The notes under the pieces were generated by a model, which ran no database searches, was not told the origin of the DNA, and saw only the letters and a list, made by a program, of their open reading frames with translations. Positions 9,037 through 20,585 of a stretch of 64,000 nt of DNA are shown piece after piece. The position numbers were made by a program, and so were the translations under genes. Positions within the stretch are counted from its first letter, which is position 1. Each line of letters opens with the position of its first letter. This stretch comes from Thermoanaerobaculia bacterium (GTDB lineage: Bacteria > Acidobacteriota > Thermoanaerobaculia > Multivoradales > UBA5704), in NCBI GenBank assembly GCA_036503335.1, contig DASXXC010000419.1:20363-84362 (forward strand), in the 5' to 3' direction.

Positions 9037-11955
9037 TTATCCCCCAGAATTCTCATCGAGGTCGGGAAAAGCAGCACGCAACTGGGCTGTGAAGCCTTCC
9101 AGTGCGAAAGCGATCCGCTCTTGTGGGTCTCTGAGCCCTTTCTTGAGGAGCCGTTCTTGGGCTTGTTTCAACTCCTCGGAATTAGGCACCAGCTCACCGC
9201 CAAGAAGCTCATTGACCGGATGGATGTTGCTCAATTCCGCCGGGCTCATGCTGCTATCGCCCTTCTTGATCAGCATGCCAATCTTTTCATTGTCTATGAA
9301 GGGTGCAAGGCGATCTGCGCGAAGGTTGCGTATGCGCGAAGCTCTAGAACGTGATTCCTTAGGGTCACCTAGAAAGTTGCTCAAAGTGCTCTTGGCGAGG
9401 AGCGTGGTTATCGCTTGTTTCACGATGCTATGGTCTTGTGTTGCAAGGAATCCGGATTCCGGTGCAAGAAGAACGGGCAATCGAATAAGCCAGCTTTTGA
9501 TCCTTTCTGCTCGTACTGTCACGGCATTGGAGTCCTTAACGAGTTGTTCTATGGCTTCTGCCAATTTAACCCAAAGCTCGGAGCCAATCTCAACCTCGTC
9601 GAGAGAATCGGGAATGGTCTTGAGACCCGTGTCAGTTAAAGATTGCTCCTCGGAACCCGACGTCTCGGATTTGCTCGACTCCTGTGGTGGCGGTGGAGGT
9701 GGCGGATCCGATTTCTCAAAGATTTTGCATATCCCCGCGATCCAGGTATAGAGCAGCAAAGCTCTTTGATGCGGCTCGTCCCCTAGATACCACAGGTCAC
9801 TGCGAAGAGCGGAGTCCCAGATGTGACTGAGCTGATCGAACTCCCAGAAGCTAGTCCAGGCAGGGGTAATCCAAGGGACCTTTACTGCGTCACGAAGCCC
9901 CAGATCCCAGGCAGCTACGGCCCAACCCAGGTCCAGTGAGTTGGGCGAGAGAGAATGAGAGCCGACGATGCCTCCCCACCTCTCCAAGGCCAGGAGGTCA
10001 TGCAGCAGTACGATCAGGGCCTTGGTCCGTTCGGCGATCTCAATCGGGCGCTCTCTTTCCAGGTCCCAAAAGGCCCAGGAGCGCCGATAGCTAGCGTGCA
10101 GCGTGCAATCGTGATCGCGAAACGGGATGATCCTGCCGGGAACGGATATGCTTCGAGCCTCGACAAACCTCATAGCTTGAAGCCATTCCTCGTCTGGGTT
10201 GACTCCGAGCGCCTCTACGAAGCGCTCCCTGTAACGAATTGACAACAGCTCGTCTTCCTCCATGGCCCGGTGAGTCTCCATTCCGACCAAATTTATAAGC
10301 ATGGTGAGGTGTGATTTCCACTTATCCTCGGGGCCATGCGGAGTCTCGCGATGAATAAGGTCACGTATGGAAAACCATAGGTCGGCAATATAGCGTGGAG
10401 TTGCCTTGAGCAGCGTAGAGCCCGTGTAGGGGAAGATGCGTTCCTGGTCCGTTTTTTCTCTGCTCTTCTTTTCGAGTAAATTCTGTTCCTCGAGTGTGCT
10501 TGCTCTTGCGCCAGGTTTGGAGGAGGTCAATTCTTGAAGGCGTACATTGAAGCAAAGGAATTCGCAAAAATTGGGAACAATCTTGCCTGCGATGGATTGT
10601 AGCTTGTGCCTTTTGACCTTTTCGAGTTGTTTCTGTTCTTCGGATTCCTCGGGTTGAGGGGGTTGTTGTTGCCCTGTTTCTTTTCTGTCTGGCTCAAAGG
10701 CCGTTTCAATATCTATCGGAAGCTGCTCAAGGAGGTCTCGGAGTCTTTCTTTGTCGTTATTCCAGCCGTTTTTCGTATCCTCATTTCTGAGGTGGCGAGG
10801 ATGAAAATTGAGAGCTTCCCATACTTTTAATGCTCCCAGCTCAATCCGCTGCCCCGGAGGCACGAGCTTGCGGATCGCATGGCCGGATAAGGATCGCGCT
10901 ATACCTCGGATCTCCGAGGAAGACAGAGACAGGTAATCGGGTGTATAAGCGGCTTCGAGCACCTTGGCAAAGTCGCCGCTCTTCCTCAAGTTGAACATCA
11001 GCTCCGCCATCCGGACGTCACCCAAAACTATGATGAAAAGGCGGGGTGAGGTGACCATGCGGATCAGGTGCAGAAGCTCCAGGGAACGCAGAGGGTTCAG
11101 GTCATAGTCGTCTACCGGGAGAACGAAGAACGGGTTCTTGACGTAACTGCTCTTGCCGAGCTCCTGCGCGAGGTCATCGAGAGCCTTGTTGAGGGCTGCG
11201 TTGATCCCTACACGCGCATCCTCGACGCGAGTGACTTCAGCGGCGTAAGCGTCAGGGTCCAAGGCGCTGGCGCGAGCATCCACGTTACCGTCCCAGGCGA
11301 TGGCAACGTCTGCGGCCAATTTTCGTAGCCCATGTAGAGCCTTTTCCCCCGACGCGAGGCTCAGAAGGCCACTCTGGTAAGTTTTGTCATCCTTTTTCTG
11401 ATTAAAACGAGTAGCGGCTCGGTCAATCCGTGCTAGAATAGCCGCGAGGAGATTGACGGGGCGCGGTAGTGGTTCCATGTCCAAGGGATCAAGCCATACG
11501 AGGCGATCCTGCAGCTCTTCCAGAGATTTCCCTATCGCATCAGGGGTTTTCTGCTGATTATTTGTACTGGCATCCGGACCTTGCGATTTTGTGCCGGCTT
11601 TATCATTCGTAGTTGTCTCTTCTTTTTTGTCTCTTCTCTCGTCGCTGGCCTGGCAAAACCTGTCAGGATCGAGGAAGGCCTCGAACAAAGAAACGAGGAC
11701 CGTGGACTTGCCTGTCCCTCGTTTTCCCGAGACGAAGACCAGCCGGCTCGACCGGAAACGATCCGGGGTGGCGGGGAGGTTGGGAGGGTTCTCCGCGGAC
11801 TTCTGCCTGGCGGCCTCATCGACATCACGTCGAGCGTCTTTCAGCGCGTCGAGAATCTTGCGAAAGGCGCTCTGCTGGGAGGCATTCAGGAGATCCCAGC
11901 GCAGCGGCCGGGCTTCGGGGCGTAGGACGTAAGGCGTCTTCTCGTCGGAAGCCAT
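9037..11955 (-). CDS. rdrA: Large P-loop NTPase, RdrA-like (RADAR ATPase candidate)
   Basis: Walker A motif VFVSGKRGTGKSTVL at about aa 75-88 and Walker-B-like FFVLPVDDYD. It is about 970 aa, the first gene of the string, and the gene body is lower in GC than its neighbours. Confidence 0.65.
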   Translation of the reverse strand: MASDEKTPYVLRPEARPLRWDLLNASQQSAFRKILDALKDARRDVDEAARQKSAENPPNLPATPDRFRSSRLVFVSGKRGTGKSTVLVSLFEAFLDPDRFCQASDERRDKKEETTTNDKAGTKSQGPDASTNNQQKTPDAIGKSLEELQDRLVWLDPLDMEPLPRPVNLLAAILARIDRAATRFNQKKDDKTYQSGLLSLASGEKALHGLRKLAADVAIAWDGNVDARASALDPDAYAAEVTRVEDARVGINAALNKALDDLAQELGKSSYVKNPFFVLPVDDYDLNPLRSLELLHLIRMVTSPRLFIIVLGDVRMAELMFNLRKSGDFAKVLEAAYTPDYLSLSSSEIRGIARSLSGHAIRKLVPPGQRIELGALKVWEALNFHPRHLRNEDTKNGWNNDKERLRDLLEQLPIDIETAFEPDRKETGQQQPPQPEESEEQKQLEKVKRHKLQSIAGKIVPNFCEFLCFNVRLQELTSSKPGARASTLEEQNLLEKKSREKTDQERIFPYTGSTLLKATPRYIADLWFSIRDLIHRETPHGPEDKWKSHLTMLINLVGMETHRAMEEDELLSIRYRERFVEALGVNPDEEWLQAMRFVEARSISVPGRIIPFRDHDCTLHASYRRSWAFWDLERERPIEIAERTKALIVLLHDLLALERWGGIVGSHSLSPNSLDLGWAVAAWDLGLRDAVKVPWITPAWTSFWEFDQLSHIWDSALRSDLWYLGDEPHQRALLLYTWIAGICKIFEKSDPPPPPPPQESSKSETSGSEEQSLTDTGLKTIPDSLDEVEIGSELWVKLAEAIEQLVKDSNAVTVRAERIKSWLIRLPVLLAPESGFLATQDHSIVKQAITTLLAKSTLSNFLGDPKESRSRASRIRNLRADRLAPFIDNEKIGMLIKKGDSSMSPAELSNIHPVNELLGGELVPNSEELKQAQERLLKKGLRDPQERIAFALEGFTAQLRAAFPDLDENSGG

Positions 11956-13170: not shown

Positions 13171-14271
13171 TCAGACCGCCGCGGTCACCGCGTCCCGGGT
13201 CGGATAATCGATGTACCCCTTCTCGCCGCCCATGTAGAACGTCTCGCGGTCGGGGGTGTTGAGGGGGACGCCTTCGGCGAAGCGCTCGACCAGGTCCGGG
13301 TTGGAGAGGAAGAGGACTCCGAAGGAGATCAGGTCCGCCTCATCCTTGGCCAGAGCCGCGTTGGCGGTCTCCTGGTTGTAGCCGCCGTTCAGCATGAAGG
13401 GCCCCTGGAAGAGCGAGCGCAGCAGGGGCGCGACCGGCGACGGGGTCGAGCCGATCGCCTCGGTGACGTGCAGGTAGGCGAGGCCGAAGCGGTTGAGCTC
13501 CCGGGCGGCGTAGCCGAAGGTGGCCGCGGGGTCGGAGTCGCTCATGCTGTTGTAACTCCCGGGGGGGGAGAGGCGTACGCCGACCCGGTCCGCGCCCCAG
13601 ACGCCGGCCACCGCCTCCGCCACCTCCAGCAGGAAGCGGGCGCGGTTCTCGATCGGGCCGCCGTAGGCGTCCGTGCGGTGGTTCGAGCCGTCGCGGAGGA
13701 ACTGGTCGATCAGGTAGCCGTTGGCGCCGTGGAGCTCGACGCCGTCGAAGCCCGATTCCAGGGCCGTCCGGGCGCCGTGGGCGAACTGCTCGACCACGCC
13801 GGCGATCTCCGAGGTCTCCAGGGCGCGCGGGACCCCGAAGGGCTTGGGACCCTCGGAGGTGAAGGTCTGCCCCTCGGCCGCGATCGCCGACGGCGCCACC
13901 GGCAGGGCCCCGCCCGGCTGCAGGAGCGGATGGGAGATCCGGCCGACGTGCCAGAGCTGGGCGAAGATCCGGCCGCCGCGCGCGTGGACGGCGTCGGTCA
14001 CCCGGCGCCACCCCTCCACCTGGGCGGCGTCGTGGATGCCGGGCGTCCCGGGATAGCCCACCCCCTGCGGCGAGACCTGGGTCCCCTCGGTGATGATCAG
14101 CCCCGCGGAGGCCCGCTGGGCGTAGTAGGTGACGGCGAGGCCGCTCGGCACGTTCCCCGCGTCCGCGCGGTTGCGGGTCATGGGGGCCATCACCATCCGG
14201 TTGCGCAGGGTATAGGGTCCCACCTGGACCGGGGAGAACAGAGTCGGGTGCTGCTCCTGCTTGTCGCTCAT
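13171..14271 (-). CDS. Old Yellow Enzyme family NADH:flavin oxidoreductase (N-ethylmaleimide reductase-like)
   Basis: TLFSPVQVGPYTLRNRMVMAPMTR..., HGANGYLIDQFL and RTDAYGG are OYE hallmarks. I chose the Met-11 start (GGAGG Shine-Dalgarno before it). Confidence 0.9.
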   Translation of the reverse strand: MSDKQEQHPTLFSPVQVGPYTLRNRMVMAPMTRNRADAGNVPSGLAVTYYAQRASAGLIITEGTQVSPQGVGYPGTPGIHDAAQVEGWRRVTDAVHARGGRIFAQLWHVGRISHPLLQPGGALPVAPSAIAAEGQTFTSEGPKPFGVPRALETSEIAGVVEQFAHGARTALESGFDGVELHGANGYLIDQFLRDGSNHRTDAYGGPIENRARFLLEVAEAVAGVWGADRVGVRLSPPGSYNSMSDSDPAATFGYAARELNRFGLAYLHVTEAIGSTPSPVAPLLRSLFQGPFMLNGGYNQETANAALAKDEADLISFGVLFLSNPDLVERFAEGVPLNTPDRETFYMGGEKGYIDYPTRDAVTAAV

Positions 14272-14356
14272 TGTGGAGCCTCCTTCGATTCGGGTTTGCA
14301 TTGTTGGTGGGTCAAAGGTACAGGGGTGAACTTTCTAGGCAAAAAATTTTTGAGGC

Positions 14357-14761
14357 TCAGCTCCCCAGCCTTCCCAGCAGCCGGGTGAGGGCCTGGCGGT
14401 CCTCCTCGCCCAGCCCGGCGAAGACCTCGCGCTCGGTCTCGCCCACGATCCGCACGGCCTCGGCGTGGCGCTCCCGGCCCGCGGGGGTCAGGGCGGCCCG
14501 CACGGAGCGCCGGTCGGCGGGATCGGGGAGGCGCTCGACCAGCCGGTCGGCCTCCAGACGGTCCACGAGCTGGGTGATGTTCGAGCGGACGCAGCAGCAG
14601 CGGTCGGCCAGATGGCTGAGGGGCAGCGGCTCGTCGGTGTCCGCGAGCGCCTTGAGCACGTTGAGCTTGGCGAGGGAGAGGCCGATCGTCCCCAGGGCTC
14701 CTTCCAGCCTTCCCTCCACCTCGTGCGCGGCGCCGATCACCCGGAACGCGAGATCGTTCAT
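14357..14761 (-). CDS. MarR-family transcriptional regulator
   Basis: Winged-helix MarR pattern (LSLAKLNVLKAL...LSHLADR...SNITQLVDRLEADRLVERLPDPADRRS). Adjacent to the OYE gene. Confidence 0.85.
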   Translation of the reverse strand: MNDLAFRVIGAAHEVEGRLEGALGTIGLSLAKLNVLKALADTDEPLPLSHLADRCCCVRSNITQLVDRLEADRLVERLPDPADRRSVRAALTPAGRERHAEAVRIVGETEREVFAGLGEEDRQALTRLLGRLGS

Positions 14762-15146
14762 GGGTGAATCATACATCCGTCATCTGTTCAGCGCAAGAGG
14801 CAGGATCGGAGGTAGAATCCCCACCTGATGAACGCGGCTCGCCGTACTCTCGGCCGCTGGGTGCTCGCGGCTCTTCTCGAACGGGGTTGCGACCCCACCA
14901 CGGCCCGTATGCCCCGGCGGGTCTTCAGCGTCCGGCCGCTCGACGCGCGCGAGATGGCGGAGCTCAATCCCCTGGTCTGGCCTCTCGTTCCCGTCTCGAA
15001 CCTGCTGCCGCTGCCGCGTCCGGTCCGCCGGCCAGTCTATGAGGTCTAGATCCAGCAGTGACTCGCAACCCGGAGGCCGCCTTCCCGTACGGGTTGAAAG
15101 AGAATAGGCTCTCCCATCATTCCGTATTGACAGAGCGAGGAACGGC

Positions 15147-15908
15147 ATGGGTCTCAAAGAAGTCCTGAGCAAGATGAAGATCGTGGAGCTCGATCCGGAG
15201 GAGGTGGCCGCGGCGGTGCCTCCGGCCGCCGTGCCATCCATGTCCGGCCCGAAGGACCTGCCGCCTCCGCCGTCGATGCCCAGGAACATCCAGGACCTGC
15301 TGGGCACGATCCCCGAGCCGCCGGCCATCGACGAGAAGAAGCTGCCGCCGCCCGCGGCGGACGACGAGGAGGGGAGCAACATCCCCGACTTCCCGGCCAT
15401 CTACCGGGCGGCGGGGGTGACCGATCCTCCCCATGGATACAGCGCCTACAAGGTGCTGGAGATCTTCGCCTCGCCCGGTTTCGCGGCGCTCGACACGCGG
15501 GCCAAGGCCGCGGCCCTCACCGGGTTCCTCAACATGAATCCGTCCGGGCCGGTGCCGATCACCGACGTGGTGCAGGACGCCGTGCGGCGCGACCAGGCGC
15601 TCGACAAGTTCGAGGAGTTTCTGCGCAACAAGCTGGGCGCGCGAGGGGAGCAGATCGACAAGGAGAACGCCCAGCTCCAGGCGGAGATCGACGAGGTCAC
15701 CCGCCGCAACCGGGAGAAGATGGAGGCCAACCGCGCGGCCGTGGAGGCCGAGCAGGCCCGCTTCACCCGCTGGCTGAGCACCAAGCGCGCCGAGGAGCGC
15801 AAGCTCTTCGACGCGGTCAACCCGTTCGTCGAGCAGAATCCGATCTCGACCGCGGATACGCCCCGTCCGGCGGCGCCGGCACCGGCACCGGAGAAGGCTC
15901 AAGGCTGA
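15147..15908 (+). CDS. Hypothetical Pro-rich / coiled-coil protein, first gene of the PspA operon
   Basis: Coding-like composition; ends 16 bp before the PspA start. The C-terminal half looks coiled-coil (QLQAEIDEVTRRNREKMEANRAAVEAEQARF). Confidence 0.5.
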   Translation: MGLKEVLSKMKIVELDPEEVAAAVPPAAVPSMSGPKDLPPPPSMPRNIQDLLGTIPEPPAIDEKKLPPPAADDEEGSNIPDFPAIYRAAGVTDPPHGYSAYKVLEIFASPGFAALDTRAKAAALTGFLNMNPSGPVPITDVVQDAVRRDQALDKFEEFLRNKLGARGEQIDKENAQLQAEIDEVTRRNREKMEANRAAVEAEQARFTRWLSTKRAEERKLFDAVNPFVEQNPISTADTPRPAAPAPAPEKAQG

Positions 15909-15923
15909 GCCGAGGAGAAAGCC

Positions 15924-16682
15924 ATGTTTCAGCGCATCGCCCGTGTGTTCAAGTCGTGGATCGGCTACTTCATCTCCTTCGCCGAGGACCCGGAGGTGAT
16001 GCTCCAGGAGTCCATCGAGGAGATGCGCAACACGCTGCCCAAGCTCAACCAGATCCTGATCACCACCCGCGCCACGGTGATCCGCCTGGAGCAGGGGAAG
16101 GCGGCGCTGGAGAGCCGGGAGAAGCAGCTCGTCAATTCGATCAAGGCCGCCCTCGCCGAGGGGAGCCCCGAGTCGCGGCGCGTGGCCGAGGACGACGCCT
16201 CGTCCCTCCAGCAGGTGCGCCAGGAGCTGGCGACCACCAACGATCAGCTCACGGCGGCCTCCAAGGCCTTCGAGAACGCCCAGATCACGGTGGAGGACAT
16301 CAAGCAGAAGCTGCGGCAGAAGATGGAGGAGAGCCGCAAGGCGATCACCGAATCGAAGAACGCCGCGGCCCTGCGAAACGCCGCCAGCGCCATCGCCGAG
16401 CTCGACACCTACGGCACCGCCGCCACCAACGACAAGTACCTGGAGGAGATCCGCCAGCGCTCCGCCGAGGCCAAGGCCGCCGTCGAGGTGGCGACCGGCG
16501 GGCTGGACGTCGAGCGGATCAAGACCGAGCGCAAGGCCCGCCAACTCCAGGCCCAGAGCGTCCTCTCCGAGTTCGAGGTGGAGATGGGCCTCAAGAAGCC
16601 GGACGCCACCCGCGAGGCCGCGCCGTTCCCCACCCAGGCGACGCCCACGGCCACGCCGACCAAGCTGCCCGAGGCGGGGTAG
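15924..16682 (+). CDS. pspA: PspA/IM30/Vipp1 family protein (bacterial ESCRT-III-like)
   Basis: The N-terminus MFQRIARVFKSWIGYFISFAEDPEVMLQESIEEMRNTLPKL matches the PspA/IM30 N-terminal pattern. The rest is long coiled-coil. Confidence 0.8.
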   Translation: MFQRIARVFKSWIGYFISFAEDPEVMLQESIEEMRNTLPKLNQILITTRATVIRLEQGKAALESREKQLVNSIKAALAEGSPESRRVAEDDASSLQQVRQELATTNDQLTAASKAFENAQITVEDIKQKLRQKMEESRKAITESKNAAALRNAASAIAELDTYGTAATNDKYLEEIRQRSAEAKAAVEVATGGLDVERIKTERKARQLQAQSVLSEFEVEMGLKKPDATREAAPFPTQATPTATPTKLPEAG

Positions 16683-16685
16683 CCC

Positions 16686-18446
16686 ATGCCCGAAACCGCC
16701 GCCCCGTCCGCCCCCGTGTTCCTCGACACCCTCCCGCCGTGGGCGTCGGAGCTCGTGCGCGCCGTCAGCGCCAAGCAGTCGAATGCCTTCGTGCTGCACG
16801 GCGTGCCGGCCGATCTGATTCCGGTGCGGGGGCCGGCGGGGCTGCGCTTCCTCTCGCTCGACGACTTCCTGGTGCAGCAGCTCTTCGCGGGGTGGTCGTC
16901 GATCGTCACCTACAACCGGGCCGAGGGGTTGGGCTTCGCCACGCCGGCGGCCCGCAGCCACTTCCAGGACCGGCTGCGGGCCTACGACACGGTCCACGGC
17001 ACCAACTGGGCGGACACCCTGCCGCGTGACGCCCCGAACTGCTTCGCCCTCCTCGACTCCTACTTCCGCCAGTGCGCCTCGGCCCAGCCGTCGCGGCCGG
17101 TGGTGCTGATCCTCCCCTTCGCCGAGACGATCGTCCCGGCGGCCGAGGTGGCCTACCGCACCCCCGAGGACCGCGCCGTGCTGGTCTACCTGCGGAAGTG
17201 GTCGCAGGACCCGGTGCTGCTGGCCAAGAACATCGTGGTGGTGATGGTGACCGAGAGCCTGGCCGAGCTCGATCCCAAGCTCGTCCGCTCGCACTCCACC
17301 ATGGAGATCGAGATCGTCCGCCCCGACCTCCGGGAGCGGCTGACCTACCTGGAGGCGGTGCGCTCGCCGGAGTGGTACGCCGCCAAGTCCGACCTGCCGC
17401 CGGCCCGGCTGGCCGAGGTGACCGCGGGCATGACCCGCGTCCAGATCGGCCAGCTTCTCGACGGCGCCGACGGCAACGGCGAGCGCCTGACCCGCGAGCG
17501 GGCCCGCGATCTCAAGAAGGAGGTCATCGAGACCGAGGGGCTGGGGCTGCTGGAGTACGTCGAGCCCAAGTACGACCTCTCGATGGTGGCGGGCATGCCG
17601 GCGGTGAAGGACCGCCTCCGCCGCGCCGCGCGGGCGATCGCGCGGGGGAACCCGGCGGCGGTGCCCATGGGCTACCTCGTCTGCGGTCCGGTGGGGAGCG
17701 CCAAGACCTTCCTCGTCGAGTGCTTCGCCAAGGAGATCGGCTTCCCCTGCGTGAAGCTGAAGAACTTCCGCTCGATGTGGGTGGGCGCGACCGAGTCCAA
17801 CCTGGAGCGCATCCTCAAGATCCTCTCCGCTCTCACCCCCGTGGGCGTGGTGGTGGACGAGGCCGACGCCGCGCTCGGCAATCGCGACCAGCAGGGGGAT
17901 TCCGGCACCCAGAACCGGGTCTTCGCGCAGATCGCCGCCTTCATGGGGGACACCACCCATCGTGGCGAGATCCTCTGGTTCCTGATCACCGCCCGTCCCG
18001 ACCTGCTGCCGATCGACCTCAAGCGCCAGGGCCGGGCCGAGGAGCACATCCCCCTCTTCTACCCGGAGACGGCGGTCGAGTACGACGAGATCTACCGGGT
18101 GATGCTGAAGAAGCTGGGGATCAAGACCGCGGTGGCCAGCATCACCGACGTGGCGACCGAGGACCAGTACTTGGGCCTCTCCGGCTCGGATCTGGAGGCG
18201 GTGCTGGTGCGGGCCATCCTGGAGGCGGAGGCTTCCGATTCCTCCGAGGTCAAGGCGGAGCATCTCCAGAAAGCTTTTACGGACTTCATCCCTCCCGCCA
18301 ACAGCCGCGAGCGGGAGATGCAGATCCTCTGCGCCGTCCTGGAATCGACCAGCCGCGAGCTCCTGCCGGAGAGGTACCGCACCCTCGACCGCGGGGAGGT
18401 GCAGGGGCGGATCAATGAGATCAAACGGGAGCTGCGGCTGGTCTGA
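16686..18446 (+). CDS. Classical-clade AAA+ ATPase (Vps4/FtsH-type ATPase domain) with a ~330-aa N-terminal domain of unknown function
   Basis: Walker A CGPVGSAKT, Walker B VVVDEADA and second region of homology ITARPDLLPIDLKRQGRAEEHIPL (the ATNRPD..LLRPGRFD pattern). It starts 4 bp after the pspA stop. Confidence 0.85.
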   Translation: MPETAAPSAPVFLDTLPPWASELVRAVSAKQSNAFVLHGVPADLIPVRGPAGLRFLSLDDFLVQQLFAGWSSIVTYNRAEGLGFATPAARSHFQDRLRAYDTVHGTNWADTLPRDAPNCFALLDSYFRQCASAQPSRPVVLILPFAETIVPAAEVAYRTPEDRAVLVYLRKWSQDPVLLAKNIVVVMVTESLAELDPKLVRSHSTMEIEIVRPDLRERLTYLEAVRSPEWYAAKSDLPPARLAEVTAGMTRVQIGQLLDGADGNGERLTRERARDLKKEVIETEGLGLLEYVEPKYDLSMVAGMPAVKDRLRRAARAIARGNPAAVPMGYLVCGPVGSAKTFLVECFAKEIGFPCVKLKNFRSMWVGATESNLERILKILSALTPVGVVVDEADAALGNRDQQGDSGTQNRVFAQIAAFMGDTTHRGEILWFLITARPDLLPIDLKRQGRAEEHIPLFYPETAVEYDEIYRVMLKKLGIKTAVASITDVATEDQYLGLSGSDLEAVLVRAILEAEASDSSEVKAEHLQKAFTDFIPPANSREREMQILCAVLESTSRELLPERYRTLDRGEVQGRINEIKRELRLV

Positions 18447-18468
18447 GGACCGGAACGAAGGAGACCCA

Positions 18469-18960
18469 ATGAAAACCGTTCGATGGCTGCTGGCGATCCT
18501 GGTTGTGCTCTGCGCGATGCTGGCCGAGGCGCAGGACCCGAAGCCGGTTTCTTCCCACGTCGTGCTGGACGAGGCCGAGATCCACTGGCGGCCGGCCGCC
18601 TCGGCCGCTCTCGGCAAAGGGGTGGAGGTCGCCGTGCTTTCCGGCAATCCGGGAGCCGCGGGGCCCTTCGTGATGCGAATGAAGATGTCTGCCGGCTACA
18701 AGATCGCGCCGCACTGGCACCCCACGGACGAGCACATCACGGTGATCGCGGGCACCTTCTCCATGGGCATGGGAGAGACCTTTGACGCCAACGCCACGAA
18801 GCCGCTCAGCGCCGGGGGCTACGCGCTGATGCCGGCGAAGATGCGCCATTTCGGATGGACCAAGGACGGGGCCACGATCCAGTTGCACGGCGTCGGCCCG
18901 TTCCTGATCTACTACGTCAACCCCGCCGACGATCCCCGCGGCGGAAAGACCAGGCAGTAG
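18469..18960 (+). CDS. Secreted cupin-domain protein
   Basis: MKTVRWLLAILVVLCAMLAEA signal, then a cupin-like HWHPTDEHITVIAGTF motif. GAAGGAG Shine-Dalgarno before the ATG. Confidence 0.7.
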   Translation: MKTVRWLLAILVVLCAMLAEAQDPKPVSSHVVLDEAEIHWRPAASAALGKGVEVAVLSGNPGAAGPFVMRMKMSAGYKIAPHWHPTDEHITVIAGTFSMGMGETFDANATKPLSAGGYALMPAKMRHFGWTKDGATIQLHGVGPFLIYYVNPADDPRGGKTRQ

Positions 18961-19010
18961 GCCGCGCGGGGCTTGCCGGGAGCCGGGCCCTCCGGTGATA
19001 CCCTAAAGGC

Positions 19011-19610
19011 ATGTCCCGCTACGATTTCCTTCTCGAGACCTACGACACCGAGCGTCTGAAGACCCTCTCCGTCTGGTCGCAATTCCGGGATGAGGATCTC
19101 GCCTTCCGGCCGGAGCCCCGGGCGCGGACGCCCCACGAGCACATGGTCCACCAGCACATCAGCGAGGACACCTGGATGAAGACCATGCTGGGGATCGACC
19201 TCGGCGAGCCGCCGCTGCCCGCCGAGGAGACCCGCCTCGCCTTTATCCGGAAGTACGCGGACGCCTCGGGCCGGCGCCTCGAAAGGCTGCGCGGGATGCC
19301 GGAGGAGTGGTTCGAGGGGGCCACCCGCTTCTTCGATGTCGAGCGCTCCCGCGCCTGGGTGCTGACGCGGCGGATCGCCCACTCGGCCCACCACCGCGGC
19401 CAGCTCACCGCCTACCTGCGCCTGCTGGGCCGGAGCCTCTACTCGACCTACGGCCCCACCGCCGACACCGGCGGGCTGTTCCTCAACGGCGCGCCGACGA
19501 TCTATCGCTATCCGGACCTGGAGGGGTTGCTGGAGGCCGAGGCCCGCGGCGGGGAATCGCCAGAGCTCCCCGGGCCGGGGGAGAAGAGCCCGACCGAGCG
19601 GCCGGGCTGA
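19011..19610 (+). CDS. DinB/YfiT-family (DinB_2) metal-dependent hydrolase-like protein
   Basis: HSAHHRGQLTAYLRLLG is the DinB-family signature. Confidence 0.7.
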   Translation: MSRYDFLLETYDTERLKTLSVWSQFRDEDLAFRPEPRARTPHEHMVHQHISEDTWMKTMLGIDLGEPPLPAEETRLAFIRKYADASGRRLERLRGMPEEWFEGATRFFDVERSRAWVLTRRIAHSAHHRGQLTAYLRLLGRSLYSTYGPTADTGGLFLNGAPTIYRYPDLEGLLEAEARGGESPELPGPGEKSPTERPG

Positions 19611-19613
19611 GCT

Positions 19614-20585
19614 CTACCGCGAGAGCACCCGCGCCAGCTCGAACAGGCTGAGGTCGAGCGGCTTGCGGTTGGCGACCACGTCCACGAGCGGGGTGGTGAC
19701 GATCTGGCTGCTGCTGATCCCCACCAGGATGCCGTGCTCCCCCGCGATCAGCCGGTGGACGGCGCCGGCGCCGAGCCGGGTAGCCAGCAGGCGGTCGAAG
19801 GCTCCCGGGGTGCCGCCGCGCTGGACGTGCCCCAGGATCGTCGCCCGCAGCTCGAACCCCAGCCGCTGGCGGTGCTCGGAGAAGTGGTGGATGAGCCGGT
19901 CGGCGTTGAATTTCGCCCCCTCGGCCACCACCACCAGGGCGTGCGGCTTGCCGCGCTGGTAGGCCCCGCGGAGCTCGGCGGCGAGGGTCTCGGGATCGAT
20001 CTCCATCTCCGGGATGATCGCCGCCTCGGCCCCGCCCGCCACCGCCGCCGCCAGCGCCAGGTATCCGCAGTCGCGACCCATCACCTCCACCAGGAAGGCC
20101 CGCTGGTGGGACGAGGCCGTCACCTTGAGCCGGTCGATCGCCTCCAGGGCGATGTTGAGGGCGGTGTCCACGCCGATGGTGATCTCGGAGCCGTAGAGGT
20201 CGTTGTCGATCGTCGAGGCGACGCCGACCACGGGGAAGCCGAGCTCGGTGAGCTGGTGGGCCCCGGTCTGGGAGCCGTTGCCGCCGATGACCACCAGGGC
20301 GTCGATCCCATGTTGTCCGAGCTGGCGCACGGCCTCGATGCGCCCTTCCTCGTTGCGGAACTCGGGGCAGCGGGCGCTCCCCAGCATGGTGCCCGCCTGC
20401 TGGAGGATGCCGCCGACGTCGCGCGCCTCCAGGCTGATGAAGTTGCCCGCGATGAGCCCCGCGAAGCCGCGCCGGACCCCGAAGACCTGCAGGCCCTCGT
20501 GGATGCCGGCGCGCACCACGGCCCGGATGGCGGCGTTCATTCCAGGGGCGTCCCCCCCGCTGGTCAAGACTGCGATCCTCTTCAT
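19614..20585 (-). CDS. pfkA: ATP-dependent 6-phosphofructokinase
   Basis: MKRIAVLTSGGDAPGMNAAIRAVVR, GGNGS, MGR and GHVQRGG are canonical PFK motifs. Confidence 0.95.
   Translation of the reverse strand: MKRIAVLTSGGDAPGMNAAIRAVVRAGIHEGLQVFGVRRGFAGLIAGNFISLEARDVGGILQQAGTMLGSARCPEFRNEEGRIEAVRQLGQHGIDALVVIGGNGSQTGAHQLTELGFPVVGVASTIDNDLYGSEITIGVDTALNIALEAIDRLKVTASSHQRAFLVEVMGRDCGYLALAAAVAGGAEAAIIPEMEIDPETLAAELRGAYQRGKPHALVVVAEGAKFNADRLIHHFSEHRQRLGFELRATILGHVQRGGTPGAFDRLLATRLGAGAVHRLIAGEHGILVGISSSQIVTTPLVDVVANRKPLDLSLFELARVLSR

Follow-up and report, generated by a model that had tools for sequence, protein, structure and literature searches.

A compact operon pairing a PspA-family protein with a tandem AAA ATPase in a Thermoanaerobaculia bacterium

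Does a bacterial PspA, which belongs to the ESCRT-III superfamily, have an ATPase of its own that acts on it as Vps4 acts on ESCRT-III? Current reviews describe bacteria as lacking a Vps4-like ATPase (PMC7619361), and proposals for what disassembles PspA/Vipp1 polymers name PspF, chaperones, Hsp70 and an intrinsic NTPase activity (PMC11746142). The question is raised by a stretch of 64 kb (here called the window) from a Thermoanaerobaculia bacterium, an acidobacterium from soil, in which a pspA-type gene is followed at once by the gene of an AAA+ ATPase. Neither the association of PspA with such an ATPase nor the analogy to Vps4 is new. The pairing was predicted earlier by comparative genomics (2020/2024), and Ravi et al. 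(mSystems 2024, PMC11237479) described an "inactive classical AAA + classical AAA" protein beside PspA (section 18, Table S3, Text S2.2), with examples in Clostridium sp. BNL1100 (AEY64320/AEY64321) and Handelsmanbacteria (OGG56892), and already proposed a Vps4-like, ATP-dependent remodelling. A search of the literature found no experimental work on the family of PspA-linked tandem AAA ATPases.

The operon and its surroundings

Three closely spaced open reading frames, orfA (15147-15908), orfB (15924-16682) and orfC (16686-18446), lie on the + strand at the coordinates given in the original prediction; the gaps between them, given there as 16 and 4 bp, are 15 and 3 nt in the sequence. The spacer between orfA and orfB (15909..15923, + strand) contains an AGGAG ribosome-binding site (Shine-Dalgarno), read from the sequence, and orfC follows orfB after 3 nt, so that the three genes form a translationally tight unit. 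The same gene order was found again in related genomes and the arrangement is therefore not due to chance.

A small conserved ORF of 73 residues (MNAARRTLGRW..., 14828..15049, + strand) ends 97 nt 5' of orfA. It was picked up by an HMM derived from the corresponding ORF of nine related loci (E 6e-43), its differences by codon position (473/304/906) follow a coding pattern, and the operon may begin with it. Divergently oriented on the - strand is a gene for a MarR-family regulator (14357..14776; PF01047/PF12802), which may regulate the operon, followed downstream by an ORF for an FMN oxidoreductase of the Old-yellow-enzyme type (13171..14301, - strand). The pair of MarR and oxidoreductase genes stays beside the operon in relatives (89% identity), and the oxidoreductase gene (PF00724) is found at the equivalent position in the relative loci L001 and L002. 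When the region 14300-19700 was scanned, no sigma70-like promoter site was found and terminator-like sites occurred at background level. A large P-loop NTPase with faint similarity to RdrA/mad8 is encoded about 3 kb upstream of the operon, in a stretch of lower GC content.

The product of orfB (15924..16682, + strand; 252 residues) was originally predicted to be a PspA/IM30 protein belonging to the ESCRT-III superfamily, an assignment that holds. It matches PF04012 (PspA_IM30) over profile positions 3-206 of 220 with an E-value of 5e-16 and 59.4 bits (gathering cut-off 33.9). Comparison with known structures by phmmer gave weak, full-length matches to Vipp1/PspA proteins (7o3w_D, E 3.4e-4 over query residues 1-241; 8qhv, 8qbw and 6zvr), collinear from helix alpha0 to alpha5. 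We recognised an N-terminal amphipathic helix, the motif 'AEDPE' and, towards the C-terminus, the motif EFEVEMGLK, after which comes a tail of low complexity. The 64-kb window encodes no other PspA. Among all three operon proteins, Pfam and NCBIfam gave no match to other Psp families, including PspB and PspC.

In the partner protein encoded by orfA (15147..15908, + strand; 253 residues), whose N-terminal peptide is MGLKEVLSKMKIVE, a short helix at the N-terminus leads through a Pro-rich linker to a small helical region and then to a long helix. In its structural model the Pro-rich residues 12-77 are disordered and residues 138-230 form a single long helix. No match was found in Pfam, NCBIfam or PADLOC, and a fold search of the model with Foldseek gave no meaningful match. 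Its homologues amount to 694 database proteins, and all the named ones belong to Thermoanaerobaculia/Acidobacteriota; judged from this distribution and its predicted helices, orfA is a lineage-specific coiled-coil protein of the Thermoanaerobaculia. PspA lies directly downstream of it in all 16 of the 16 loci that carry orfA. We also considered whether orfA might be a divergent ESCRT-III protein (hhalign against PspA, E 0.075, probability 1%) or a relative of c4, the membrane-anchored protein described below (E 4e-4, probability 35%), and in both cases took the similarity as coiled-coil noise.

Architecture and affinities of the ATPase

The ATPase encoded by orfC (16686..18446, + strand) has 586 residues and matches the AAA domain PF00004 at residues 331-456 (E 5e-23), as well as AAA_16 and AAA_lid_3 in Pfam. 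This match falls in the second of two domains, D2 (residues ~293-535; 17562..18290, + strand), which is predicted to be an active classical AAA domain with its lid. On the same strand D2 carries the Walker A motif GPVGSAKT (17685-17708), pore loop 1 MWVG (17775-17786), the Walker B residues DE (17856-17861) within VVVDEAD and the arginine fingers R447 and R450 (18024-18035). Residues K340, G367, D391, E392, R447 and R450 are conserved across 42 diverse family members. With the Walker A lysine, the Walker B DE, the aromatic pore loop and the two arginines of the SRH all intact, orfC can be placed in the classical AAA clade, in agreement with the original prediction, and the SRH string it quoted (ITARPDLL...RQGRAEEHI) is present. 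The sensor-1 position, usually the Asn of 'TNRPD', is Ala in orfC (ITARPD) and varies between N, C, S and A across the family; this replacement could lower the ATPase rate.

The first 290 residues (D1; 16686..17555, + strand) had been regarded as an N-terminal domain that could recognise PspA. Profile-profile comparison and alignment with PEX1 identify them instead as a degenerate, presumably inactive duplicate of the AAA domain. D1 and D2 match each other in profile-profile comparison with an E-value of 3.4e-6, and PEX1 aligns with orfC over 411 residues. In D1 the Walker A motif is replaced by 'LHGVPADL' and Walker B by 'PFAE'; throughout the alignment of 42 diverse family members the P-loop Lys and the DE of Walker B are absent from this domain. 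By sequence, then, orfC is a tandem AAA protein with an inactive D1 and an active D2, as in PEX1/6. It ends in a helical extension (18291..18446, + strand) with the family motif E..Q.L.AV.ECT....LPE.YR, in which P561 is nearly invariant in the family alignment and residues 541-585 are helical in the model.

The ATPase, originally described as Vps4-like, is not specifically so. Among NCBIfam models, CdvC (32.4 bits, far below its cut-off of 650) scored lower than CDC48 (68.4), FtsH (63.0) and PAN (54.5), and the top 60 sequence matches in the PDB were Cdc48/p97, VAT, AFG2, NVL and Rix7. Pfam detected neither an MIT domain (E<=0.01) nor the Vps4 C-terminal domain (PF09336), and the protein has two AAA domains; the placement outside Vps4 rests on these profile scores, PDB matches and domain content. 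The original statement that the ATPase is not PspF proved correct, since Pfam found no sigma54-activator domain (PF00158) and no HTH in orfC.

Conservation of the pairing with PspA

For the original prediction, a lack of conserved linkage to PspA in other genomes was to count towards a refutation; the linkage proved to be conserved in three lineages. In a genome scan with a 12-sequence alignment, PspA was encoded upstream of the ATPase on the same strand in 37 of the 39 loci that had enough upstream sequence: 14/14 in Thermoanaerobaculia, 7/8 in other Acidobacteriota and 16/17 in Balneolaceae/Bacteroidota. The remaining operon genes differ between these lineages, which leaves PspA and the ATPase as the constant pair. 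It is clear that the linkage is not universal. Within 5 kb of the ATPase gene, no PspA was found in Rhodothermales (0/8), Spirochaetota (0/2) or Myxococcota (0/7; 0/17 together), so PspA cannot be the sole client of the family, unless its gene lies elsewhere in these genomes.

The PspA encoded by orfB has its orthologues in the Balneolaceae and Terriglobia operons that include the ATPase, and a C-terminal motif, [EQ]F[EK]xEMG[LK], is common to the PspAs of these operons; by these sequence comparisons the ATPase-linked PspAs are one orthologous subfamily. The immediate upstream neighbour of the ATPase in 36 loci is c4, a protein with a TM hairpin and a coiled coil, and it is c4, not PspA, that adjoins the ATPase in Balneolaceae and Terriglobia. 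Ravi et al. regarded this TM-anchored partner as a divergent Snf7 (PMC11237479). In our hands this could not be confirmed: c4 gave no Pfam match to Snf7 or PspA even at E<=10, and its hhalign comparison with the profile of PspA ended at an E-value of 0.05; c4 is absent from the whole 64-kb window. We also looked for fusions of PspA and the ATPase of the Rosetta-stone type, and in the family members of 820-860 residues the additional part proved to be another degenerate N-domain rather than PspA, c4 or orfA.

Possible roles and comparison with known systems

On balance, we lean towards reading the operon as a compact PspA (ESCRT-III-like) module of bacteria, equipped with a dedicated AAA+ unfoldase of its own. 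By means of its N-terminal amphipathic helix, PspA would polymerise on the inner membrane under stress. The ATPase would form a double-ring hexamer in which, as in PEX1/6, the degenerate D1 ring provides the scaffold for assembly and the D2 ring the motor, and with ATP it would thread PspA subunits through the aromatic pore loop; the handle on PspA would probably be the flexible C-terminal tail beyond the EMGL motif. Threading would disassemble, recycle or remodel the PspA polymer, the job that Vps4 does on ESCRT-III. The protein orfA, which combines a long coiled coil with a disordered Pro-rich arm, could serve as an adaptor or a co-polymerising partner particular to the Thermoanaerobaculia, and may replace the membrane-anchored coiled-coil protein that adjoins the ATPase in other lineages.

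This reading is favoured by the PspA identity of orfB, the conserved catalytic and pore motifs of orfC, the tight gene spacing, the linkage in three lineages and the common subfamily of the linked PspAs, by the best sequence matches of orfC, which are substrate-threading unfoldases (Cdc48/p97, VAT, AFG2, FtsH and PAN), and by the fact that Ravi et al. (PMC11237479) independently reached the same association and hypothesis. Against it are the three lineages in which the family occurs with no PspA within 5 kb, the position of c4 rather than PspA next to the ATPase in Balneolaceae/Terriglobia, the sensor-1 Ala of the window protein, and the outcome of searches for a recognition domain such as MIT and for a PspA-ATPase fusion, neither of which was found. 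A dedicated AAA protein is also not strictly required, since PspA has intrinsic ATPase activity (PMC11746142) and a preprint implicates Hsp70 in Vipp1 disassembly (bioRxiv 10.1101/2025.05.20.655051).

Several of these points would fit an ATPase that acts as a general chaperone for the extraction or assembly of membrane proteins, in the manner of Msp1/ATAD1, FtsH or PEX1/6, with orfA, c4 or transporter subunits as clients and PspA co-expressed only to seal the membrane while clients are handled. The position of c4 directly upstream in 36 loci would be explained, as would the members lacking a nearby PspA, which lie beside an ABC/FtsX transporter and a Ser/Thr kinase (Myxococcota) or beside metabolic genes, and one family member (P0278) that ends in an FtsH-type M41 protease. 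We nevertheless consider this explanation unlikely. The window operon encodes no TM protein, its three products being predicted as soluble or peripheral, and across the three linked lineages the transporters vary, PspA alone being a constant partner.

A regulatory pair that works by sequestration, PspA inhibiting the ATPase or the reverse until membrane stress releases it and no polymer being disassembled, has a precedent in E. coli, where PspA is a known partner of an AAA+ protein and inhibits PspF (PMC7619361). We find it quite improbable here; orfC has neither a DNA-binding nor a sigma54-interaction domain, belongs to the classical rather than the NtrC clade, and carries, as threading motors typically do, an aromatic pore loop. 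An anti-phage defence module, with the ATPase as an IetA/IteA- or TRIP13-like effector or sensor, is suggested by weak PADLOC and NCBIfam matches (~35 bits) and by the P-loop NTPase in the lower-GC stretch upstream, and is very improbable, given that the matches span only the generic AAA core (35.7 bits against a curated cut-off of 510), the IetS partner is absent, the ATPase tree follows taxonomy, and the operon lies in a conserved chromosomal context, unlike a mobile defence island.

Returning to the dedicated unfoldase, it is possible, and we put it forward tentatively, that bacteria have their own machine of an ESCRT-III protein and a disassemblase, made of PspA and a PEX1/6-like double-ring unfoldase and assembled independently of Vps4. 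The Thermoanaerobaculia operon of three or four genes would be the smallest version of it that suffices by itself, and orfA its adaptor. In that case, and against what current reviews say, the ATP-driven turnover of polymers of the ESCRT-III type would not have been invented by archaea or eukaryotes. In at least three bacterial lineages a PspA subfamily is accompanied by an AAA motor of the threading type, which makes it a direct test case for polymer disassembly. The window version is the simplest that we found, and with no transporter and no membrane anchor it is convenient for reconstitution in vitro. As a genomic prediction the idea is already published; what is added here is a clean minimal example, the detail of D1 degeneracy, the linkage statistics and the common C-terminal motif of the PspAs.

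By its architecture and its orthology to the published operon type, the window ATPase belongs to the family of Ravi et al.: it combines a degenerate N-terminal with an active classical AAA domain, is operonic with PspA, and, compared over its full length, shares 43-47% identity with the ATPases from operons of Terriglobia/Bryobacteraceae. The genes there follow the published order PspA - SBP+OmpA - permease - ABC ATPase - TM/coiled-coil protein - ATPase (PMC11237479), whereas the window holds a minimal version (small ORF, orfA, PspA, ATPase) in which the ABC transporter and TM-anchored partner are missing and the Thermoanaerobaculia-specific orfA is added. In the PspF-PspABC system of Proteobacteria a PspA gene likewise adjoins an AAA+ gene; PspF, however, belongs to the sigma54 activators of NtrC type and carries an HTH domain, and orfC has neither feature. 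The type II AAA unfoldases PEX1/PEX6, NSF/Sec18 and p97/Cdc48 include the best sequence matches of orfC (Cdc48/p97), yet orfC is bacterial and PspA-linked, begins directly with D1 rather than with a double-psi-barrel or other substrate-binding N-domain, and has a D1 far more degenerate than theirs, with no P-loop at all.

With Vps4/CdvC and ESCRT-III of eukaryotes and archaea the operon shares a classical-clade AAA protein in which the pore loop is aromatic and the SRH arginines are present, a gene adjoining that of a polymer-forming protein in the ESCRT-III superfamily, and, plausibly and by analogy, the job of ATP-driven subunit extraction. It differs in having two AAA domains instead of one and no MIT, Vps4_C or beta-domain, and its partner comes from the superfamily's PspA branch rather than from that of Snf7. 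Judged from these features, the likeness to Vps4 is one of functional analogy within the classical AAA clade and not of orthology, and the PspA-linked motor was most likely recruited independently of Vps4.

The operon and its surroundings

Three open reading frames of 253, 252 and 586 aa, orfA (15147-15908), orfB (15924-16682) and orfC (16686-18446), were found on the + strand at 15147-18446, exactly where a three-gene operon had been proposed. The intergenic gaps, originally given as 16 and 4, were each off by one: in the sequence, orfA and orfB are separated by 15 nt, with AGGAG six bases ahead of the orfB ATG, and orfB and orfC by 3 nt. The G+C content around the operon in the window is about 68-70%. 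The nearest relatives of the window are Thermoanaerobaculia (Acidobacteriota) metagenome-assembled genomes; the orfC protein is 95% identical to that of the related locus L004 and the orfA protein 99% identical to its homologue P0121.

Between a divergent MarR gene and orfA lies a 73-aa ORF (MNAARRTLGRWVLAALLERGCDP...; 14828-15049, + strand), which matches no known family. It is kept in nine related Thermoanaerobaculia loci, its substitutions are biased to the third codon position (473/304/906), and it probably represents a genuine small gene that heads the operon. The MarR regulator and an old-yellow-enzyme FMN oxidoreductase (13171-14776, - strand) are divergent from the operon, with only 51 bp between the MarR start and that of the small ORF, and the pair occupies the same position in the relatives L001, L002 and L003. 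That the pair is kept here hints at a possible response of the PspA operon to electrophile or redox stress.

Downstream of orfC, a cupin gene (Cupin_7/ChrR-like, 18470-18960, + strand) has its most likely start at ATG 18470, which lies 23 nt beyond the orfC stop and is preceded by a GGAG site, and the N-terminus of its product resembles a signal peptide (MKTVRWLLAILVVLCAMLAEAQ). Since the cupin is not retained downstream of the operon in relatives, we placed it outside the module. On the - strand, a gene for a 972-aa protein (9037-11955) with an N-terminal P-loop, GKRGTGKST, and only faint matches (AAA_16, RdrA, mad8) lies in a stretch with a G+C content of 0.54, compared with about 0.68 nearby; the protein may be an NTPase gained by horizontal transfer and perhaps involved in defence.

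The PspA protein and orfA

The PspA/IM30 identity of orfB was borne out by PF04012 (E 5e-16; the 59.4 bits exceed the gathering score of 33.9, and the match spans profile positions 3-206 of 220), and its alignment with solved Vipp1/PspA chains is weak but collinear. When compared across loci, the PspAs linked to the ATPase form one orthologous subfamily with a common C-terminal motif, [EQ]F[EK]xEMG[LK], followed by a variable tail.

No match to orfA was found in Pfam, NCBIfam or PADLOC. Its 694 homologues, of which every named one comes from Thermoanaerobaculia or Acidobacteriota, mark it as a genuine conserved protein. In the predicted structure a short helix at the N-terminus leads into a disordered Pro-rich arm (12-77), followed by a small helical region and a long helix (138-230), the last modelled as a single helix at high confidence; a Foldseek fold search with the model found nothing. 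We also noticed the string MGLK both in the invariant N-terminus of orfA (MGLKEVLSKMKIVE; residues 1-14, 15147-15188, + strand) and in the PspA C-terminal motif EFEVEMGLKKP (orfB residues ~219-227, ~16578-16604, + strand), which could be chance or a common short recognition motif for the ATPase.

The two AAA domains of orfC

A Pfam search of orfC gave one PF00004 AAA domain (residues 331-456, E 5e-23) and neither a sigma54-activator domain nor an HTH; the earlier claim that the protein is not PspF is therefore correct. Walker A (GPVGSAKT), Walker B (DE), the pore loop (MWVG) and Arg447/Arg450 are intact, and these catalytic and threading motifs are kept across 42 family members of just 25-42% identity to orfC. 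At sensor-1 Ala replaces the usual Asn, a position that is variable in the family. The AAA lid is followed by a C-terminal extension (residues 536-586, 18291-18446, + strand) with a family-wide conserved motif, E..Q.L.AV.ECT....LPE.YR, for which no counterpart was recognised in other classical AAA proteins. MIT and Vps4_C domains were both absent in the Pfam search, curated models scored 68 bits for CDC48, 63 for FtsH, 54 for PAN and only 32 for CdvC, and the best PDB sequence matches were Cdc48/p97, VAT, AFG2 and NVL. Of the proposed Vps4-like character, membership of the classical AAA clade thus stands, whereas these comparisons argue against counting orfC as a Vps4 homologue proper.

The N-terminal domain had been put forward as one that could recognise PspA. 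Instead, residues 10-290 gave a confident AlphaFold model (pLDDT ~80-90) with a beta-alpha-beta core and a helical lid, and the N-domain profile aligned with that of the protein's own C-terminal AAA domain from the Walker-B strand to the lid (E 3.4e-6); by model and profile, this half is a dead AAA domain (D1, residues 1-290) ahead of the active one (D2). In the family, LHGNVxDL stands in place of the P-loop and DYAE or PFAE in place of Walker B, so D1 should be incapable of ATP hydrolysis.

Some homologues depart from this layout. P0248, P0254, P0265, P0295, P0390 and P0391 (818-860 aa) carry two degenerate N-domain copies before the active AAA, that is, three AAA-like domains; near the P0391 gene (L084:10001-12583) are DUF350 and spermine-synthase-like genes, which are PspA-associated elsewhere according to Ravi et al. 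(PMC11237479). P0278 (721 aa) joins a degenerate N-domain and an AAA domain to a C-terminal FtsH-type M41 peptidase, and, lacking TM segments, is by its sequence an FtsH-like but soluble protease. P0349 (931 aa) has a Hint/LAGLIDADG intein immediately ahead of the AAA domain.

Linkage to PspA and possible mechanism

At E<=1e-3, a search with the N-domain only gave 782 cluster representatives. The majority are 560-610 aa long and share the two-domain layout. A genome scan for the ATPase gave 80 loci in six lineages; ORFs were called and clustered at all loci, and annotation of the conserved neighbours gave five operon types. These are [small ORF]-orfA-PspA-[c4]-ATPase in Thermoanaerobaculia; PspA-short PspA-like-c4-enoyl-CoA hydratase-CNNM/CorC-ATPase in Balneolaceae/Bacteroidota; PspA-SBP(NMT1)+OmpA-ABC permease-ABC ATPase-c4-ATPase in Terriglobia/Bryobacteraceae; and, with no PspA within 5 kb, ABC-FtsX-Ser/Thr kinase-ATPase in Myxococcota and DAO-DeoC-ATPase-EutN in Rhodothermales. 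The c4 protein, about 295 aa long, combines a TM hairpin with a coiled coil and is not encoded anywhere in the window. In the Balneolaceae loci (L022-L079) the second, short PspA-like ORF (~150 aa) lies directly 3' of the full-length PspA; the example at L028:1364-1819 matches the PspA profile only, and no Pfam match was obtained for this ORF at E<=0.01.

Counting only loci with >4.4 kb of upstream sequence, PspA lies upstream of the ATPase in 14/14 loci of Thermoanaerobaculia, 7/8 of other Acidobacteriota and 16/17 of Balneolaceae/Bacteroidota, and in 0/8 of Rhodothermales, 0/2 of Spirochaetota and 0/7 of Myxococcota. The linkage is thus conserved in three lineages. Over all loci, 58/59 PspA-profile matches are located upstream of the ATPase and on the same strand as it. 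The neighbour-joining tree of the ATPase tracks taxonomy, and PspA-linked and unlinked clades are interleaved.

The Terriglobia gene order is that published by Ravi et al. (PMC11237479), and the ATPase of this operon type is orthologous to orfC over its full length, so orfC belongs to their family. They proposed ATP-dependent remodelling comparable to Snf7-Vps4; the idea is therefore already published as a computational prediction. According to later reviews, bacteria appear to lack a Vps4-like ATPase (PMC7619361), and Junglas et al. speculate that PspA is disassembled by chaperones or PspF (PMC11746142). Our literature search found no experimental study of the PspA-associated ATPase family.

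The best-supported reading, to which we give somewhat better than an even chance, is that the PspA polymer has a double-ring unfoldase dedicated to it: orfC, presumably a hexamer, would extract PspA subunits from the polymer, perhaps using their C-terminal tail as a handle, and recycle them, and orfA may be a lineage-specific adaptor or co-polymer. Its main rival, that c4, orfA or transporter subunits are the clients of the ATPase while PspA does no more than protect the membrane, gains from the PspA-less contexts of the ATPase and from c4 being its usual immediate neighbour; with PspA upstream in nearly all loci of three lineages, we consider it a good deal less probable. It is unlikely that PspA and the ATPase are a PspF-like sequestration pair, given the domain content of orfC, and a role of the operon in defence is very improbable.

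For the extraction of PspA subunits by orfC, the window operon offers a minimal set, predicted to be all-soluble, in which to test for a bacterial ESCRT-III disassemblase. As to that original prediction, the linkage is conserved and the functional analogy plausible, but narrow homology with Vps4 does not hold and the N-domain is a dead AAA. An inactive D1 followed by an active D2, as in orfC, is the layout of PEX1/PEX6.
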